IMG/VR virus record: IMGVR_UViG_2565956617_000006
Location: 1-12,894 of that record
Origin: a virus
Taxonomy: Duplodnaviria > Heunggongvirae > Uroviricota > Caudoviricetes
Direction: 5' to 3' (one strand)
Length of the DNA stretch: 12,894 bases
In this document: in pieces, positions 1 through 12,894 of the stretch
Position numbering within the stretch: the stretch's first letter is position 1
How the letters are laid out: every line of letters starts with the position of its first letter
Position numbers and translations under genes: made by a program
The notes under the pieces: generated by a model
The model's input: only the letters and a program-made list of their open reading frames with translations
Told to the model about the DNA's origin: nothing
The model's database searches: none

Positions 1-477
1 ATGAAACTCATCAGTAACGATCTGCGCGATGGCGATAAATTGCCGCATCGTCATGTCTTTAACGGCATGGGTTACGATGGCGATAATATTTCACCGCATC
101 TGGCGTGGGATGATGTTCCTGCGGGAACGAAAAGTTTTGTTGTCACCTGCTACGACCCGGATGCGCCAACCGGCTCCGGCTGGTGGCACTGGGTAGTTGT
201 TAACTTACCCGCTGATACCCGCGTATTACCGCAAGGGTTTGGCTCTGGTCTGGTAGCAATGCCAGACGGCGTTTTGCAGACGCGTACCGACTTTGGTAAA
301 ACCGGGTACGATGGCGCAGCACCGCCGAAAGGCGAAACTCATCGCTACATTTTTACCGTTCACGCGCTGGATATAGAACGTATTGATGTCGATGAAGGTG
401 CCAGCGGCGCGATGGTCGGGTTTAACGTTCATTTCCACTCTCTGGCAAGCGCCTCGATTACTGCGATGTTTAGTTAA
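1..477 (+). CDS. ybhB: YbhB, PEBP/UPF0098-family (Raf-kinase-inhibitor-like) cytoplasmic protein; host chromosomal gene on the bio side of lambda attB
   Basis: 158-aa ORF starting exactly at window position 1 (MKLISNDLRDGDKLPHRHVFNG...), with the PEBP-type D-P-D-x-P...H signature (CYDPDAPTGSGWWHW); recognised from memory as E. coli YbhB. It lies directly beside a sequence matching the lambda attB B-prime arm, as expected for ybhB. Coordinates include the TAA stop. Confidence 0.85.
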   Translation: MKLISNDLRDGDKLPHRHVFNGMGYDGDNISPHLAWDDVPAGTKSFVVTCYDPDAPTGSGWWHWVVVNLPADTRVLPQGFGSGLVAMPDGVLQTRTDFGKTGYDGAAPPKGETHRYIFTVHALDIERIDVDEGASGAMVGFNVHFHSLASASITAMFS

Positions 478-485
478 TCACTCTG

Positions 486-508
486 CCAGATGGCGCAATG
501 CCATCTGG
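486..508 (+). terminator. Hairpin just downstream of ybhB (CCAGATGGC-GCAAT-GCCATCTGG); possible terminator or RNA-stability element
   Basis: Perfect 9-bp inverted repeat with a 5-nt loop, starting 9 nt after the ybhB stop. There is no U-tract immediately 3-prime, so an intrinsic-terminator role is uncertain. Confidence 0.3.
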
Positions 509-1084: not shown

Positions 1085-2071
1085 ATGAGAAATTATAGCA
1101 TAGATACTATGAGGTTTGTAGCGTGCTTTTTTATAATAGCTGTTCATATAGGTGGGTACCCGCAACAAGGAGAATTATTTACAGAGGTATTTAGAGGTGT
1201 ATCGCGATGGGCTGTGCCATTCTTCTTCCTGGTTACAGGATATTTTTTATCATGCCAAAACAAAAGAAAACTACTATTAAGACTTACTAGGATAACATAT
1301 ATAACACTAATATTTAGCGTACTGTTCTTTATTTTTCAACTAACTTTGAACTATAAAGATGGATATTCATTAATTATAAGCATCATAGATCCATTTATTT
1401 TTATCGGTGGGTCTTATTTCCATTTGTGGTTCTTGCCTTCAATCTTAATAGGTATGATTTCAGTAAGTTACATGATAGAAAATGTTTCAGAAAATTTTGG
1501 AATCTCTTTAAGTATACTTATTATATTTATAATGTGGTGCGTTGATTTCTTTGGTACTGCCTACTTCTCACATGATATATATGAATCAACAAGAACTATT
1601 CTATCAATACCAACAATATATATAGGGTATTACTTATACACTAAGAAAGACATAATTATAAAATCTAACGGGAATTTATTGATTTTATGTATGCTAGCTT
1701 CCGTGGTTTTTTCCGTGATTGAGATTCTAATATACAAATCAATATATGGTTCACTTGCCAATATAAGAGAACTACCTTTATTTTCTGTTATTACTGCTAT
1801 AATAATACTAATGTTATCTATAAGATCACAAAGCACAAAAGAGACTGTTCTATCAAGGATAGGAAGAGATGATTCTATCGTCATATATCTTATTCACCCA
1901 CTATTTATAGTTTTAATATCAAAGGTGTTTAGGGTTGCTCATGAATATAACGGGATGGCTATTCTTGTGATTACATTTATTGTAAGCATTTCGTTTTCAT
2001 TGTTTGTCAAGAGTAAATTTCCTTCAATATATTCATTTCTTACTGGCGGTTTTATAAAAGAAACAAAATAA
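1085..2071 (+). CDS. Acyltransferase-3 family integral membrane protein; putative O-antigen O-acetyltransferase (Oac-like lysogenic-conversion moron)
   Basis: 328-aa ORF, very hydrophobic with roughly 10 predicted membrane spans and the N-terminal acyltransferase-3 R-x10-H motif (RFVACFFIIAVH). Coding sequence is strikingly AT-rich compared with the adjacent structural genes. It sits between attR and the tailspike, as oac does in Shigella phage Sf6. ATG at 1085 has only a weak SD; an internal ATG at 1109 is an alternative start. Confidence 0.8.
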   Translation: MRNYSIDTMRFVACFFIIAVHIGGYPQQGELFTEVFRGVSRWAVPFFFLVTGYFLSCQNKRKLLLRLTRITYITLIFSVLFFIFQLTLNYKDGYSLIISIIDPFIFIGGSYFHLWFLPSILIGMISVSYMIENVSENFGISLSILIIFIMWCVDFFGTAYFSHDIYESTRTILSIPTIYIGYYLYTKKDIIIKSNGNLLILCMLASVVFSVIEILIYKSIYGSLANIRELPLFSVITAIIILMLSIRSQSTKETVLSRIGRDDSIVIYLIHPLFIVLISKVFRVAHEYNGMAILVITFIVSISFSLFVKSKFPSIYSFLTGGFIKETK

Positions 2072-2081
2072 ACCATAAAAC

Positions 2082-2106
2082 ACACCACCATAATATATGG
2101 TGGTGT
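2082..2106. terminator. Bidirectional hairpin between the convergent acyltransferase and tailspike genes
   Basis: Perfect 10-bp inverted repeat ACACCACCAT / ATGGTGGTGT with a 5-nt loop, lying between the acyltransferase stop (2069-2071) and the tailspike stop (2129-2131). A/T-rich runs flank it on both sides (TAAAA upstream, AAATTATTT downstream). Confidence 0.45.
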
Positions 2107-2128: not shown

Positions 2129-4027
2129 TTACATGTCATTTTCTGAATTATAAATAAGTACAACCTGACCTGAATACGTTGCTTGTGATGACCACCCTGT
2201 ATCCATATTGTATGGCCTGATCCTTACTTGGCTTGAACTAATTAATCTAGCTTTTATAAGCCATGTATCATCGTTTGTGTTTGCTGCTACCTCCTGAATT
2301 GATACTGTATTTGCTGGCTGGAATTGATCTGGTATTGCTCTTGTTACAACCCTTGACGATCCAGATACTGTTAGTGTGAAAAACTCCCTACCCGATGTTG
2401 ATATAGATTGGCAACCTTCAGAAAAGTTGTTTCTTATATCTGGTCTGGATGATCTTCCTTCTGCTATGGTCTTCATGCGAATAACGCTAAGTGGCATTAC
2501 AGTTCCCGTTGTATTACGGAATCTGCAACCTGTTATCTTAACCTGAAACGGATTTGATATAAGATTTATTGCAACTCCATGTTCAGGTACTAACCAGTTG
2601 CATGAGCTAACAGTAAATCTCGCACCGTCTGAGTTTGATTCAATTAAGCATCCATCGAAATAGCATCCAACAAAAATATCTGCGTTAGACATTATAACCA
2701 CACGCCCTTTTGCGCTATCAGCAGACTGATTTGGATAAAAATGACTATTACTAAAAGAATTTGCTCCTTTACGTAAATACATAACATCTGCATACTGTGA
2801 ACCAATAACTAAGTCTGAGAAGTTATTATCATAGTTGTTGATATCCAAGCCAACGCCATCTGTAACGTTAGTTGGGTAAGAAGCATTCCAATCTGGTTGT
2901 TGAAATATAAACGTTTTTCCCACATTTAATTCATGTGGCTGTGAGTCATTAGGTTCAGTCTTTAATCCATAACGCAAGTATCTTGTCAGTAGACCTCCCA
3001 ATATAGTCACTTTCAAAAAGTCATCATAAACCCTAATTGCGCCGGAAGCTTTCCAGTTAGCATCGATATTAGGATTAAATACCACGATGTTTTCAATTGG
3101 TCTAGAGCCGTTAACTTTACGAAAATCTAGAACAGGTTCTGTAGAAGGAAATGCTCCAATTGCTAAAAGAGATGGATTCAACATAGAAAAATTCAAACAA
3201 TCTGTTATTGTAAATGGACGTGATACATAGTAAGTGCCCTGAGTCATATCAAAAACAGTGCCACCCAAATTGTACATGTTTGGATCTTCTCTATCAGTTG
3301 AGTAAGTTGTTTTGCGATTTCTCTTGATTATACTATCTCTCCACAAATCCAGTGCATCAGAGCTGTCGAATGTTGAATCGCATGGTTTTGCTCCGTAATT
3401 TCTTGGGTCATCTACTGAATACCCAGAAAGAAATCCAACACACACCCATGTTGAGTCTGGAGTGGAGCCTGGCGTAACTATATAACCATCAATTGGTATA
3501 TTTCCTATATATGAATAATACATTCCATCTGAATATTTGAATGATTCGTATTTATTTAATATCACTCCGCCAACTGACATATCTCCAGATTTTTTGTATA
3601 CATATGGCATGTAATCGCTATAAACATTACCACCATATGTGCTCCCGACAATCTTATCTCCATTGTTTGATGAAATATCAACTCGCAACTGATCAGGATC
3701 ATACTTCAGTAAATTAGGAAAATAGAACTGCTGCACACCATATGCATCATAAACAGCCATAGAGTGGCCTTGCACAGTTACGAACTTGGCAATCTGTCCG
3801 TTATATACAGGGTAACCAGCAGCGTTAATGATGATTGGTTGCGAAACAGGAACGTGAGAGCCGTCTTCGTTCTCCACATAAACCTGAATCTGGTTTTCAG
3901 GGTTTTCCGGGTCAGTGTCAATTTTACCGATATAAATTTTGCCATTGGCTACGGCTTTAAAAGAACGAGCCATAGTGAAGAGTTGCGAAGGCATGCTTAC
4001 CACAACATTTGCGGTGATATCTGACAT
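2129..4027 (-). CDS. Tailspike protein: P22-type N-terminal head-binding domain plus divergent C-terminal receptor-binding/depolymerase region
   Basis: Translation from the ATG at 4027 gives [59 protein letters not shown]...[15 protein letters not shown]...LKYDPDQ, closely matching the P22 gp9 head-binding domain ([13 protein letters not shown]...) as recalled. SD GGAG lies 7 nt upstream of this ATG. The ORF-track start at 4075 adds 16 residues with no homology and is rejected. The remaining ~520 aa are AT-rich, rich in G/S/T/N/Y/D, and do not match the P22 gp9 body. Confidence 0.88.
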
Positions 4028-4052
4028 TTCATTGCTCCAGACGAATGATATG

Positions 4053-4075
4053 ATGCAATCATGATGTGATTGCAT
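4053..4075. promoter_or_regulatory. Candidate operator: inverted repeat ATGCAATCA-N5-TGATTGCAT in the divergent mnt/tailspike intergenic region
   Basis: Perfect 9-bp arms separated by 5 bp, 26 bp upstream of the tailspike ATG and ~75 bp upstream of the Mnt-like start. Size and symmetry fit a site for a tetrameric RHH repressor. No convincing sigma-70 -35/-10 pair could be assigned by eye. Confidence 0.4.
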
Positions 4076-4148
4076 ACCGAAATGGTACTATTGAGTATTT
4101 ATCCAGTAGGTTACGATGCCATTCCACCCAACTGGTGAGGCATCAAGG

Positions 4149-4409
4149 ATGTACAGCAAATACGACGAGGCGCAGTTTCACTTGAGACTTCCGCATGAAC
4201 TCCACGCGAAAATTAAACAGCGCGCGAAGATGAATAACAGGTCGCTGAACTCAGAGATAATTGCAGCGATTGAAGAATCATTGGCTAAACAAAGCTCTGC
4301 ATCAGTTTACATTGACGATGCAGAGCGTATGGCAGAACAACAATCTGATATGGTTAAGAAAATTGTCTTTGATACGCTCAAGGAGCTATATAAAAAAGAC
4401 AGCAACTAA
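4149..4409 (+). CDS. mnt: Mnt-like ribbon-helix-helix (Arc/MetJ superfamily) repressor
   Basis: Clear similarity to P22 Mnt as recalled: QFHLRLPHELHAKIKQRAKMNNRSLNSEIIAAIEESL versus HFNFRMPMEVREKLKFRAEANGRSMNSELLQIVQDAL, and DDAERMAEQQSDMVKKIVFDTLKELYKK versus NDAERLADEQSELVKKMVFDTLKDLYKK. Start chosen at ATG 4149 (86 aa, GAGG SD 8 nt upstream); the ORF track's ATG at 4116 (97 aa) is an alternative. Orientation is opposite to the late genes, as for P22 mnt. Confidence 0.8.
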   Translation: MYSKYDEAQFHLRLPHELHAKIKQRAKMNNRSLNSEIIAAIEESLAKQSSASVYIDDAERMAEQQSDMVKKIVFDTLKELYKKDSN

Positions 4410-4429
4410 CCATCCATTACGGAGGATTT

Positions 4430-4507
4430 ATGCAAAGAGATATGATGAATATTACATTCTACATATTTGGTTTTTGCACTTTCCTGGTGTTTGCAAAGCT
4501 ATTCTGA
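4430..4507 (+). CDS. Hypothetical 25-aa hydrophobic micro-protein (MQRDMMNITFYIFGFCTFLVFAKLF)
   Basis: ORF found by eye, below the ORF-track size cutoff. GGAGG (4421-4425) lies 4 nt upstream of the ATG. It starts 20 nt after the mnt stop and overlaps the 3-prime end of the convergent gp16-like gene by 9 nt. The residue run ITFYIFGFCTFLVF could form a single membrane span. It may be spurious. Confidence 0.25.
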   Translation: MQRDMMNITFYIFGFCTFLVFAKLF

Positions 4508-6496
4508 CAACGCATCAGACTTAGCCCCCTGCGTCATAGCGTTAATTGCCTTTTGTGCCTGCTGCATGGCTTTCTCAAACGCTGTTGATCCGCGTGGGGT
4601 GTTTGCCATTCGGAGCATTGCATTTCTGAATGGCTCGCTCTCATAGGCGCGAGTGAGAAGTCCGTAGCTTACTGCTGCGCCAGTTGTCGCCGGGTTCATT
4701 GCCGTCCCATACCCAATAATGAACGGGATAGTTTGCTGCCCTGTGGGTGTTGTTACTGCCGCTTTTGCAGCCTGCTGCGTGGATTGCAGGTAGTTTTTCA
4801 ATCCTTTCAGATAAGCGGCTTCCTGACCTTTAAATGTGATGCCAGTCTGGTTTTGCAGGATGTTAAGCTGCCGAAGGAACTGGTCAGGGGAACCACCTGA
4901 TTTCTCCATCGCCTTTCCAATGATGCCATTGCGCATTTGCGCCCTGCCAACACGACCAACTGAGTTATACAGAGTCTTAATTTCCGATTTGTTCTTGCTG
5001 AATAGCATGTTGTTGACAACTTCCGGCGTAAGATCGCCTTTCATGAGAACATTCTTCAGCCTGGTATTCTTTAGTTTCGCCGCTTCGTCAGCGTAAACGG
5101 CATTGGCCTGCTGATATTTACGGAGAGTATCGCTGCCAAGATTCTGACCAATGGCACCATTGATATCGTCGGTCATTGCCTTGTAAACTCGCTGAATGGC
5201 AGCATCGGAACGGTTTGGTAATACCGGTCGCTCACCCTTCACGTCCATTCTGAACTGGCTGCGCAGGTCGCTTAATTGCTTCAAATCCAGATTTACCGGA
5301 CCATCAGGGCCAGCATTGCGAACAAGCTCATCACGATATGACTGAAGTTTTGAAATTGTCTCGTTATCAGCTACCTTACCAAGCTTCTGCAGATTAGATA
5401 TCTCAGTATCAATCTGCTGAATTGCTCGCGCAGGCTGAATGTTTACTCCAGCCATAGCATTCTGAACCTGCTCCAGTCGATTACCGGCGGCACGACGAAT
5501 TCCTGATGTTTTCGTTTTAAGGCTGCCAATAACAACCGCTGGATCATACTCGCCGAATTTATCAGCAAATCTCTGCACCAACTGACTTCTCGCTTCCTGT
5601 TGCGTTGCTCTCATTCCGCTTGTGCCAGCCAGGGGAATATTTTCTGCTGTAGTCTGCGCCATTTTCCCGACGCGGGAAGTAGGCTGTAACAGGTCTGTGG
5701 TGTGCAGAGGCACTCCTTCACGCTCTGCAAATCTGATAGCTTGCTGCGCTTCTGGTGCAATAGCACCACGAACGCCACGATAAGCAGCGCCTAATCCACG
5801 TCCGGCAGCGTTAATAGCGCCGCCAGCCAGAACGCCAACGCCTAAATCGGTGGCGAGTGCTTCCGCATCATCTTTCGCACTATTTGCAGCAAGTGATCCA
5901 ACTGCGTTTTCAGCGAGAAGGCGAGTTGCCCCCTGAGCAATTCGACCAGCAAGTGTTGGTGCCTGTGCTGCCGCTCTCTCAACGCCAGCAGGAGTGAGGT
6001 AAGGCAATGCTTCAGCAAATACCCTTCCCTCTGTCGTTTGTGGAGTCAGCGCGCCTTGCTGAAAGCCAAAGTCCTGCTCTAATCCCTGCGTTGTTACTCG
6101 TGGCGCTGGTTGATATGTACCATCGCCAATACCGAGTTTACCGCCAGCCCAAGCCGCCGCGCTTGTTACAGCATCGGCAACTGATGCAGGTATGTTTGCC
6201 ACGTTCACGCCAGCCTGCACCAGTCCGCGACCTGTCTCTTTTACTGCTTCACCAAGATCAGACATAAATCCACTTTGCTGTGGTTGTTGCTGTGCTACTG
6301 GTTGTTGTGTCTCCACTGGCTGCACAGATGGCAATGGATAGGCAGCATAGAAAGCTTGCTTAGCCTGCTCTGCATTTTCTCCGGCTTGCGGGGCCACGAC
6401 TTCATTGAAGTATTGCTCCTGAGCCTGCGCTTTTTGTTCTGGTGCTAACGCCTGATACTGTGGAGAGGCGATAACATCTTTCCATGCTTTAGCCAT
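4499..6496 (-). CDS. Ejection (internal virion, E) protein, P22 gp16-like
   Basis: 665-aa Ala/Gln/Gly-rich ORF, last gene of the ejection-protein trio before the tailspike/immI region, as in P22 gene order 7-20-16. Its ATG overlaps the upstream gene's stop (TAATG). Assignment is by synteny and composition. Confidence 0.65.
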   Translation of the reverse strand: MAKAWKDVIASPQYQALAPEQKAQAQEQYFNEVVAPQAGENAEQAKQAFYAAYPLPSVQPVETQQPVAQQQPQQSGFMSDLGEAVKETGRGLVQAGVNVANIPASVADAVTSAAAWAGGKLGIGDGTYQPAPRVTTQGLEQDFGFQQGALTPQTTEGRVFAEALPYLTPAGVERAAAQAPTLAGRIAQGATRLLAENAVGSLAANSAKDDAEALATDLGVGVLAGGAINAAGRGLGAAYRGVRGAIAPEAQQAIRFAEREGVPLHTTDLLQPTSRVGKMAQTTAENIPLAGTSGMRATQQEARSQLVQRFADKFGEYDPAVVIGSLKTKTSGIRRAAGNRLEQVQNAMAGVNIQPARAIQQIDTEISNLQKLGKVADNETISKLQSYRDELVRNAGPDGPVNLDLKQLSDLRSQFRMDVKGERPVLPNRSDAAIQRVYKAMTDDINGAIGQNLGSDTLRKYQQANAVYADEAAKLKNTRLKNVLMKGDLTPEVVNNMLFSKNKSEIKTLYNSVGRVGRAQMRNGIIGKAMEKSGGSPDQFLRQLNILQNQTGITFKGQEAAYLKGLKNYLQSTQQAAKAAVTTPTGQQTIPFIIGYGTAMNPATTGAAVSYGLLTRAYESEPFRNAMLRMANTPRGSTAFEKAMQQAQKAINAMTQGAKSDALSE

Positions 6497-12003: not shown

Positions 12004-12894
12004 TTACGGATTACCGAAGAACTGACCGCCCATGTGAGGGTTAAAGCACACATATGCAGGCAGTAAGTCGAAGCGCATTTTTTGCACGTTGGCATCGCCA
12101 TCTGCGTATTTATGTACGCGGATGGAGAAACCTTCATATGTTGCAACAGCAGAATCAATACTGTGCAGTTTCGGCAGTGGGATAGAGCCAAGTCCACAGA
12201 AGAACTTGTTATAGAACAGGTTTGGCTTCATTGTCTGGCTAGCAGTGCCTACTACAGATACGGCATCGCCTGCCGCTACCTGACGACTTACAGAGTTGTA
12301 CTGCGGGTTTGTAGTGTCATAAATCGGAACACCAGAAAGCGTAACCGTCACATCGCCACCGCTGTCTGAATTAGCATCAGCAGTAACCGTTGCAGTGAAG
12401 CTAATTGGTGTGGCTCCGTTATACAACGCCTGTTTGGTCTGCTGTTGCAGCCAGTAGGTATTGGTGAATTTGACCTGATCACCAGCTTTCAGAAAACCTG
12501 TAACGCTGGCTGTCGCTCCGGTCAATGTTACAGTGAACTGGTATGAGTCTTTAACTGCGTTATAGGTAACAGTTGGCTGTGTTTTGACTGTCAGTGTTCC
12601 GCCAAATGCCCCCTGCGTACGAGAGGCAAGCCCATTAGACATCAGTGCGCGAATGCCGCCAAAATTGGTTGGGATCTGCGCATTCTCCCATGCAGTACGA
12701 ACCAATTGATCTGAAGCGTGCAAACCAGTCTGCGCATCAGCAAGTCGCTGTGCAGACCATGGATCCATTACAGCATAGTTTTCACCTTCATTAACGCCGA
12801 GATCTTTCAGGAAAGATGCCGTCTGCGCAACATCAGACCATTTGGTGATTGGAGTATTGGGGCTACCAAGTGACAACGCACCGTTATTCATCAT
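12004..12894 (-). CDS. Major capsid (coat) protein, C-terminal ~296 aa; 5-prime end lies beyond the window
   Basis: ORF runs off the right edge of the window. It occupies the slot just upstream of gp4, where gene 5 (coat) sits in P22-like phages, and is followed by tandem stops and a strong terminator, typical of a highly expressed capsid gene. Assignment is by synteny; I could not confirm sequence identity to P22 gp5 from memory. Confidence 0.6.
   Translation of the reverse strand: MMNNGALSLGSPNTPITKWSDVAQTASFLKDLGVNEGENYAVMDPWSAQRLADAQTGLHASDQLVRTAWENAQIPTNFGGIRALMSNGLASRTQGAFGGTLTVKTQPTVTYNAVKDSYQFTVTLTGATASVTGFLKAGDQVKFTNTYWLQQQTKQALYNGATPISFTATVTADANSDSGGDVTVTLSGVPIYDTTNPQYNSVSRQVAAGDAVSVVGTASQTMKPNLFYNKFFCGLGSIPLPKLHSIDSAVATYEGFSIRVHKYADGDANVQKMRFDLLPAYVCFNPHMGGQFFGNP

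Follow-up and report, generated by a model that had tools for sequence, protein, structure and literature searches.

In phage P22, the slot that separates gene 16 from the tailspike gene is occupied by immI, which combines mnt, followed by the small ORF orf59a, with Pant, Oarc, arc, ant, sar and t_ant. The mnt operator is given in the P22 record as AGGTCCACCGTGGACCT, which is followed by ATTGAG, and the promoter Pmnt reads TTGAGA-N17-TATCAT, with TTGAGA as its -35 element. Vershon and colleagues reportedly found in 1987 that occupancy of this operator (Omnt) represses Pant and indirectly favours Pmnt. The slot as such has been named the 'ant moron', and in ST64T, ST104 and Para1 it holds only mnt and one uncharacterised gene (Villafane 2008, PMC2629481). 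The same study raised obstruction by Mnt of transcription toward the P22 tailspike gene, and the question of P22 tailspike dosage, which dates from the 1980s, was still open there (Villafane et al. 2008, PMC2629481). Phage L has the same mnt-only layout, for which a new role and a remnant were both left possible (Zaworski 2021, PMC8022706).

An mnt-only region in a P22-like prophage

The window analysed here, a stretch of 12,894 nucleotides, covers the right end of a P22-like prophage (Lederbergvirus; Table 1). Its late genes, homologues of P22 16, 20, 7, 14, needle, 10, 4 and coat, lie on the minus strand, and the gene 16 homologue is the final one ahead of the mnt insert. The order at the locus is tailspike (minus), mnt (plus), a 25-aa ORF (plus) and gene 16 (minus), with tailspike and mnt divergent, and the 121-nt intergenic space between these two genes holds two adjacent, separate elements, a palindrome and a 17-mer. 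The source locus is a 14-kb prophage remnant in the lambda attachment region, flanked by ybhB and ybhC, with a truncated integrase and a coat gene interrupted by ISEc52, and no immC, lysis or replication genes were found in this remnant. Since the source prophage is a remnant, neither the 17-mer nor the palindrome need still be in use in the source genome.

Table 1. Positions, strands and supporting observations for the features of the window
Feature	Position	Strand	Remarks
PEBP-family gene	1-477	+	ybhB in RefSeq
O-antigen-type acyltransferase	1085-2071	+	
Tailspike gene, 632 aa, P22-type head-binding N-terminal domain	2129..4027	-	Pfam Head_binding 5e-66; RefSeq span identical
Tailspike start codon	4027..4025	-	RBS GGAG 4038..4035
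Perfect 9-5-9 inverted repeat ATGCAATCA-TGATG-TGATTGCAT	4053-4061/4067-4075	-	Most likely a hairpin in the tailspike mRNA leader
Predicted Mnt operator CATACCGAAATGGTACT, quasi-palindrome TACC-N5-GGTA	4073..4089	.	Centre 4081; positional orthologue of P22 Omnt
Predicted Pmnt: -35 TTGAGT (4091-4096), 15-nt spacer, -10 TACGAT (4112-4117)	4091..4117	+	Homology to P22 Pmnt
mnt, 86 aa, ribbon-helix-helix and Mnt C-terminal tetramerisation helix	4149..4409	+	RBS GAGG 4137-4140
Perfect 10-13-10 inverted repeat inside mnt	4294..4326	-	Hairpin followed by UUUGUUU, terminator-like
25-aa hydrophobic ORF MQRDMMNITFYIFGFCTFLVFAKLF	4430..4507	+	Downstream of mnt; RBS GGAGG 4421-4425
P22 gene 16 homologue (DNA transfer/injection protein)	4499..6496	-	PHROG 770, 5e-238

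What lies inserted between the tailspike gene and gene 16 was found to be mnt and an uncharacterised small ORF, with no arc or ant, as in the mnt-only 'ant morons'. The region represents the P22 'ant moron' (immI) in its mnt-only version, which is common and already described. It shares with immI the slot itself, a two-domain Mnt, the geometry of operator and -35, the ATTGAG junction and a small ORF after mnt, but it lacks Pant, Oarc, arc, ant, sar and t_ant, and its 17-mer is different and less symmetric. The first-pass annotation had described an mnt without arc or ant, and this absence held up: no arc, ant or sar was found in the window, the whole source locus or the complete Sf101 genome, and neither ant nor Pant lies opposite mnt in the window, the source locus, Sf101 or, at the mnt site, VSe13. 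No second ribbon-helix-helix gene was found, and an Rfam scan of positions 3800-4700, judged by E-value, returned no family, and thus no sar-like RNA and none for the palindrome.

The idea that such an 'orphan' Mnt is unusual had to be given up, as mnt-only regions have already been published (PMC2629481, PMC8022706). An mnt that faces the tailspike gene without arc or ant is also present in the Salmonella phages VSe13, ST160 and L, the E. coli phages JEP4 and Gally, and the Proteus phage Brookers. The mnt-only morons of L, ST64T, ST104, ST160, SE1 and Gally are like the window in the orientation of mnt and in having one uncharacterised small gene beside it, but they combine a QFNLRL Mnt with the perfect palindrome AAGACCACGGTGGTCTT and a P22-type tailspike leader, whereas the window differs in its leader hairpin, and its QFHLRL-class Mnt comes with a 17-mer of its own. 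Much closer are the published phages Sf101 and IME10, which are 98% identical to the window across the junction, palindrome and mnt included. Unlike the source prophage, both are complete, viable phages, and mnt is unannotated or mislabelled in their records; Sf101, where it goes under the name 'partition protein ATPase', lacks the 25-aa ORF. The junction was also found in 231 of 5,426 complete E. coli genomes, among them O26:H11 11368, when a 181-nt probe was required to match with a coverage of at least 80%.

Mnt, its predicted operator and its predicted promoter

The mnt homologue proved genuine, as had been proposed. The 86-aa protein matched both Pfam domains, Arc (PF03869, 1e-14) and Repressor_Mnt (PF11423, 3e-14), as well as both solved pieces of P22 Mnt, PDB 1MNT (3.4e-19, residues 6-79) and 1QEY (1.7e-8, residues 56-84), which makes it a complete Mnt with both domains; its identity to P22 Mnt is 49%. 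Its β-strand reads QFHLRL, compared to HFNFRM in P22 Mnt, and the residues that we take to contact the DNA are Q, H and R in the window protein and H, N and R in P22. RefSeq places the start of mnt at 4149, consistent with the ribosome-binding site in front of it, while a longer version of the ORF, beginning at 4116, shares bases with the predicted -10. The 4149 start is favoured because this -10 would put the transcription start past the ATG at 4116. An assignment as the ribbon-helix-helix antitoxin of a type II toxin-antitoxin system was rejected, as weak Pfam matches to HicB and FitA span the ribbon-helix-helix fold alone, the C-terminus is the Mnt helix, and the sole neighbour, the 25-aa ORF, has no family match and leaves mnt without a cognate toxin.

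The 17-mer at 4073-4089, which shares 3 bp with the inverted repeat, lies directly upstream of a conserved ATTGAG, like the annotated P22 operator, and the distance from the operator centre to the first base of the -35 is 10 bp both in P22 and here (4081 to 4091). The junction of a 17-mer followed by ATTG was kept in every Mnt relative examined. When β-strands and 17-mers were tabulated over all collected loci, three classes were obtained with zero cross-combinations: HFNFRM with AGGTCCACCGTGGACCT (P22, epsilon34 and Pluralibacter), QFNLRL with AAGACCACGGTGGTCTT and variants (ST160, L, Gally, Brookers, Providencia and Symbiopectobacterium), and QFHLRL with CATACCGAAATGGTACT and variants (about 200 loci, including the window). 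The earlier expectation that the different β-strand would go with a different operator was supported by the tabulation, and the window represents a new specificity class, although cassette and arrangement are both known. Specificity in Arc and Mnt is set by the N-terminal residues, according to Knight and Sauer (1989) as cited in a passage of PMC3413123, and the co-variation of 17-mer and β-strand is therefore the behaviour expected of an operator. Homology, position and co-variation together suggest that the quasi-palindrome at 4073-4089 is most likely the 17-bp site bound by the Mnt tetramer.

The QFHLRL 17-mer persists where Mnt is 62-67% identical and the flanks are different, in Serratia (CATACCTAAACGGTACT), Buttiauxella (CGTACCAAAATGGTACT), VSe13 and JEP4. 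Its symmetry varies between relatives, with only 4 of 8 positions symmetric in the window, 6 of 8 in Buttiauxella, where GTACC-N5-GGTAC is perfect, and full palindromes in the 17-mers of L and ST160; the conserved CC is altered in a few alleles. In the sole relative with an in-frame stop in mnt, from Citrobacter, the 17-mer is damaged as well (GGTA to AGTA). The first-pass annotation had proposed a genome-wide motif search and had named arc and ant under an identical operator elsewhere in the prophage as counter-evidence. No second copy of the 17-mer (up to 3-4 mismatches) was found in the window, in complete Sf101 and VSe13, or in the 47 kb around the source locus. Among IMG/VR contigs, a pattern combining the operator with the -35 gave 119 matches, none of which lay beside arc or ant and all of which were linked to mnt save two chance matches in unrelated contigs, although the pattern is biased toward mnt modules because it includes the Pmnt -35.

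The predicted Pmnt has a -10 that was unchanged across 33 upstream variants, and a spacer shorter than the 17 nt found in VSe13 and JEP4. As a consensus promoter scan did not call it and the spacer is short, Pmnt is either a weak promoter or an uncertain call. The motif CAGTAG in its spacer is common to the window and the mnt-only phages of the L/ST64T/ST104/ST160/Gally group, while the Arc operator sequence, which is present in P22, epsilon34 and Pluralibacter, is absent from the window's Pmnt spacer. No leftward promoter was detected by the consensus scan, in keeping with the lack of an opposing Pant. Downstream of mnt, the 25-aa ORF was intact and of equal length in 34 DNA variants and was also found in Sf6, which is without mnt, but gave no PHROG match; other mnt-only phages carry different small membrane or lipoprotein genes in its place. 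Its strong ribosome-binding site, its intactness, its presence in Sf6 and the alternative small genes fit a prophage-expressed cargo cassette, and the ORF is likely cargo of the mnt transcription unit.

These data also bear on the idea that the cassette is a decaying, now inactive remnant of a once complete immI, an option raised for phage L (PMC8022706). It would agree with the state of the source locus, which is a dead prophage, and with the Citrobacter relative that has a stop codon in mnt. We nevertheless consider decay improbable, given that mnt is under purifying selection (dN/dS about 0.1-0.4 over 69 intact alleles), that the operator classes are conserved and, in L and ST160, perfectly palindromic, and that the cassette is found in the viable phages Sf101, IME10 and VSe13 in addition to the 231 E. 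coli genomes.

The palindrome and hairpins in tailspike leaders

Between mnt and the tailspike ATG, a perfect 9-5-9 repeat had been described as an operator-like element abutting the tailspike start. The repeat is exact, but it ends 25 nt upstream of the ATG rather than next to it. Perfect repeats that have arms of 9 bp or more and loops of 3-10 nt are expected about 0.45 times per simulated 12.9-kb window, so that the mere occurrence of one is compatible with chance, whereas only about 0.7% of simulated intergenic stretches of 121 nt should contain one of this quality, which makes its intergenic placement more than would be expected by chance. No second copy (up to 4 mismatches) was found in the window, in complete Sf101 and VSe13, or in the 47 kb around the source locus. 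An intrinsic terminator was rejected, as 3 of the 9 pairs are G-C and neither strand has a T-run, and zero terminator-like sites were found in a scan of 3900-4700; a reading as an IHF site was likewise ruled out on sequence.

A perfect dyad in the right intergenic region, unlikely to be there by chance, next to a repressor whose altered β-strand calls for a new operator, and with a right arm that shares bases with a TTGCAT hexamer and with the conserved margin of the mnt module, could be taken for the Mnt operator, from which Mnt would act on the mnt promoter and/or on transcription that enters the tailspike gene. The inheritance of the palindrome, however, does not follow that of mnt. In E. 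coli P276M and CFSAN061768, which carry Mnt alleles about 98% identical to that of the window, a P22-type tailspike leader replaces the palindrome, as it does in JNE132847, where Mnt is about 91% identical with the same N-terminal half, and in several IMG/VR contigs; the 17-mer and the promoter region are kept in all three E. coli strains. Among about 155 related loci, the perfect T..A form of the window made up about 7% and a perfect C..G form (ATGCAACCA...TGGTTGCAT) about 3%, while the majority form, ATGCAACCA...TGATTGCAT, has a C·A mismatch on the plus strand and a G·U pair on the minus strand; Sf101 has the C form and IME10 the T form. In Escherichia sp. E1V33 the arms have changed symmetrically (G-C to T-A), yet the β-strand of Mnt is unchanged. 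Moreover, the palindrome has no half-site similarity to any Mnt operator class, and the position of P22 Omnt is held instead by the neighbouring 17-mer, the better candidate. A role of the palindrome as the Mnt operator is thus quite unlikely.

The majority form bears equally on a possible 5' stem-loop of the mnt mRNA, to be made from a lineage-specific promoter, CTGACA (4021-4026)-N17-AATGAT (4044-4049), with a start at about 4056. This is the best plus-strand sigma-70 match (9/12), and the homology-assigned Pmnt is weak here, but plus-strand promoter-like sites were no more frequent in the scan than in shuffled sequence (2 observed, 1.7 expected), the proposed -35 is the context of the tailspike start codon, and the plus-strand C·A mismatch of the majority allele would disturb such a stem, all of which makes this explanation very unlikely. 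The same promoter would leave the 17-mer operator downstream of the transcription start.

On the minus strand, the substitutions in the palindrome largely preserve pairing. Four further single-sided stem transitions each led to G·U on the minus strand, and one transversion disrupts the loop-closing pair. Minus-strand pairing in the stem was kept in 98.4% of the cells of the pairing table, a value reached by 1 of 500 shuffles, compared to roughly 87% for the plus strand by arithmetic from the same table, a strand-specific wobble argument that rests on about five independent substitutions. At one stem position the minus-strand pairs were UG (16), UA (3) and CG (2), and at another GC was exchanged for UA; pairing was thus kept through two compensatory pairs together with wobbles in the tailspike sense. 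The local hairpin folds with -10.0 and -9.4 kcal/mol (z-scores -3.2 and -3.5) and alone stands out, as the fold of the whole 101-nt leader is ordinary (z -1.0); in E1V33 the hairpin is thermodynamically marginal (z -0.3). Judged by this substitution pattern, the palindrome is most likely an RNA hairpin in the tailspike message.

Hairpins were also found in the tailspike leaders of other phages. P22-family leaders have a 7-bp stem, CCGUAGC-CAU-GCUGCGG and variants, which ends 25-28 nt before the tailspike ATG, always contains at least one sense-strand G·U and shows a compensatory C-G to A-U exchange and swapped G-C/U·G pairs. In Sf6, which has no mnt, a 9-bp hairpin ends 25 nt ahead of the tailspike ATG (z -6.3), and the Proteus and Providencia relatives have another leader hairpin (z -2.6 in Brookers), while some other leader hairpins are weak (z -0.3 to -1.8). 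The P22-type and Sf6 hairpins are thus similar to that of the window in a stem of 7-9 bp, in its distance to the ATG and in the preservation of sense-strand pairing, but the stem sequences are unrelated to the palindrome. Across all these phages the leaders are homologous over their final ~27 nt, ribosome-binding site included, and the hairpins start where this homology stops. A leader hairpin might protect a processed 5' end, insulate the ribosome-binding site or cause a pause; for the P22-type and Sf6 hairpins we found no published description of a function.

The coincidence of hairpin and homology boundary could also mean that the palindrome is a functionless by-product of the recombination junction between the tailspike and mnt modules, as palindromes mark or promote boundaries. 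In the E. coli genome search, tailspike-only matches ended at 4041-4043 and mnt-only matches began at about 4070; the repeat thus spans a lineage-specific joint of 26 bp, and its last bases, TTGCAT, are the sole part within the mnt module. We regard this as rather doubtful, however, since a by-product would account neither for the pairing preserved by compensatory pairs and sense-strand wobbles nor for the recurrence of the same distance to the ATG in unrelated leaders, nor for the stability of the local fold.

A possible working of the locus and its significance

The reading that we favour, with a probability of roughly 0.6, is that Mnt would autoregulate its own small operon at the predicted operator and that the palindrome would be a hairpin in the tailspike leader RNA. 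It builds on homology, position, co-inheritance, co-variation, the substitution pattern and the purifying selection on mnt, and from these we infer the binding of Mnt, the sign of the regulation and a role for the hairpin. An Mnt tetramer would occupy 4073-4089, directly next to the Pmnt -35, the place held by Omnt in P22, and with no Pant, arc or ant opposite, the bound repressor would modulate Pmnt alone, leaving mnt and the 25-aa ORF autoregulated. Speculatively, bound Mnt may also block, incidentally, RNA polymerase heading from the late operon to the tailspike gene. The late transcript itself would fold the palindrome into a hairpin upstream of the tailspike start codon, which probably affects the stability, processing or translation of the tailspike message.

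A more far-reaching version, which we put forward tentatively and consider improbable in this full form, is that the position-fixed hairpins, which recur 25-28 nt ahead of the tailspike start in at least three leader families of unrelated sequence and would include the palindrome, act in cis as a so far undescribed RNA element controlling how stable the tailspike mRNA is and how it is processed or translated, and that in mnt-only phages Mnt, bound 0-3 bp from the base of the hairpin, would act together with the antisense terminator-like hairpin inside mnt to gate late read-through into the tailspike gene. The second hairpin, at 4294-4326, is conserved, is encountered by late transcription on its way to the tailspike gene and has a folding energy of -18.4 kcal/mol (z -2.8), and all three single substitutions seen in it among alleles led to G·U on the minus strand. 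By analogy it could, speculatively, act like t_ant of P22. If such gating were true, the 'orphan' Mnt would serve tailspike dosage rather than immunity.

The locus itself is an ordinary one, as mnt-only regions are documented and copies of this one are known from hundreds of E. coli genomes as well as from two published phages. It does call for caution in that the most perfect palindrome near a repressor gene need not be its operator. The three natural Mnt specificity classes, each with its own predicted operator in the same place, provide a data set for the recognition code of ribbon-helix-helix proteins and for orthogonal repressor/operator pairs. Finally, the recurrent, strand-specific hairpin ahead of the tailspike gene, if real, would offer a testable handle on tailspike dosage in P22-like phages.

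Inverted repeats and a promoter-like site around the tailspike gene

Besides the palindrome ahead of the tailspike gene, a longer perfect inverted repeat was found within the mnt coding sequence (see table below). On the strand of the late transcript, which runs toward the tailspike gene, this repeat folds at -18.4 kcal/mol (z -2.8) and is followed at its 3' side by UUUGUUU, and the hairpin therefore looks like a terminator situated upstream of the tailspike gene. Of the single substitutions among alleles that fall in the hairpin, all three (3/3) lead to G·U on the late-transcript strand. The hairpin may correspond to t_ant of P22. The only other perfect inverted repeats in the window with arms of at least 9 bp, those just past ybhB and between the acyltransferase and tailspike genes, are likely terminators. 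The plus-strand promoter-like site at the tailspike start codon would direct a transcript starting at the palindrome, and the site did not exceed chance in a shuffle control.

Positions of the features discussed, in the window or in related loci
Feature	Sequence or locus	Position	Strand	Remark
Inverted repeat	window	486-508		just past ybhB
Inverted repeat	window	2082-2106		between convergent stops of acyltransferase and tailspike genes
Promoter-like site, CTGACA-N17-AATGAT	window	4021-4049	plus	overlaps tailspike start codon
Inverted repeat, 10-13-10	window	4294-4326	minus	perfect; within mnt coding sequence
Hydrophobic 25-aa ORF (MQRDMMNITFYIFGFCTFLVFAKLF)	window	4430-4507	plus	RBS 4421-4425
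Coat gene	window	12004-12894
HNH endonuclease insertion	E. coli 357900 (L015)	1996-2636
HNH endonuclease insertion	Kapi1 (L010)	1243-1743
Direct repeat, AGC(A/G)TGGCTACGGTGAATTTT	P22 (L004)	1591-1611 and 1702-1722

Module joints and the source prophage

At two loci, E. coli 357900 and Kapi1, an inserted HNH endonuclease gene separates the tailspike gene from the mnt (or ant) module. In the former, a duplicate of the tailspike start and leader remains beside the palindrome. The direct repeat in P22 brackets a segment of approximately 110 bp, from the ant terminator to gene 9; its motif also makes up the leader hairpin, and this motif is met again in other phages at module joints and is annotated in CUS-3 as a 'boundary sequence'.

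The source locus (E. coli Ec40743, NZ_CP041919.1 3115064-3130039) holds a 14-kb prophage remnant in the lambda attachment region, the ybhB/ybhC interval. Its coat gene is cut off by ISEc52 (IS3-family), only a fragment of the integrase is present, and the remnant lacks genes for immunity, replication, lysis and terminase.

Mnt homologues and the adjoining small ORF

The label 'partition protein ATPase', carried by Mnt homologues in RefSeq phage records (Sf101 gp14, ST160 and P22, NC_002371) and in PHROG 795, is a propagated misannotation of a ribbon-helix-helix repressor of 83-97 aa. At about 2440-2760 of L102 (Citrobacter sp. Res13-Sevr-PEB04-36), the reading frame of the mnt relative is interrupted by a stop at codon 5, and the predicted operator has changed from GGTA to AGTA; from these sequence changes, repressor and predicted operator appear to be decaying jointly.

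The gap from mnt to the end of gene 16 is occupied by the 25-aa ORF, which had no family match, is intact and of constant length in 34 DNA variants, and is also carried by Sf6, a phage without mnt. Its product may be a membrane peptide expressed from the prophage.
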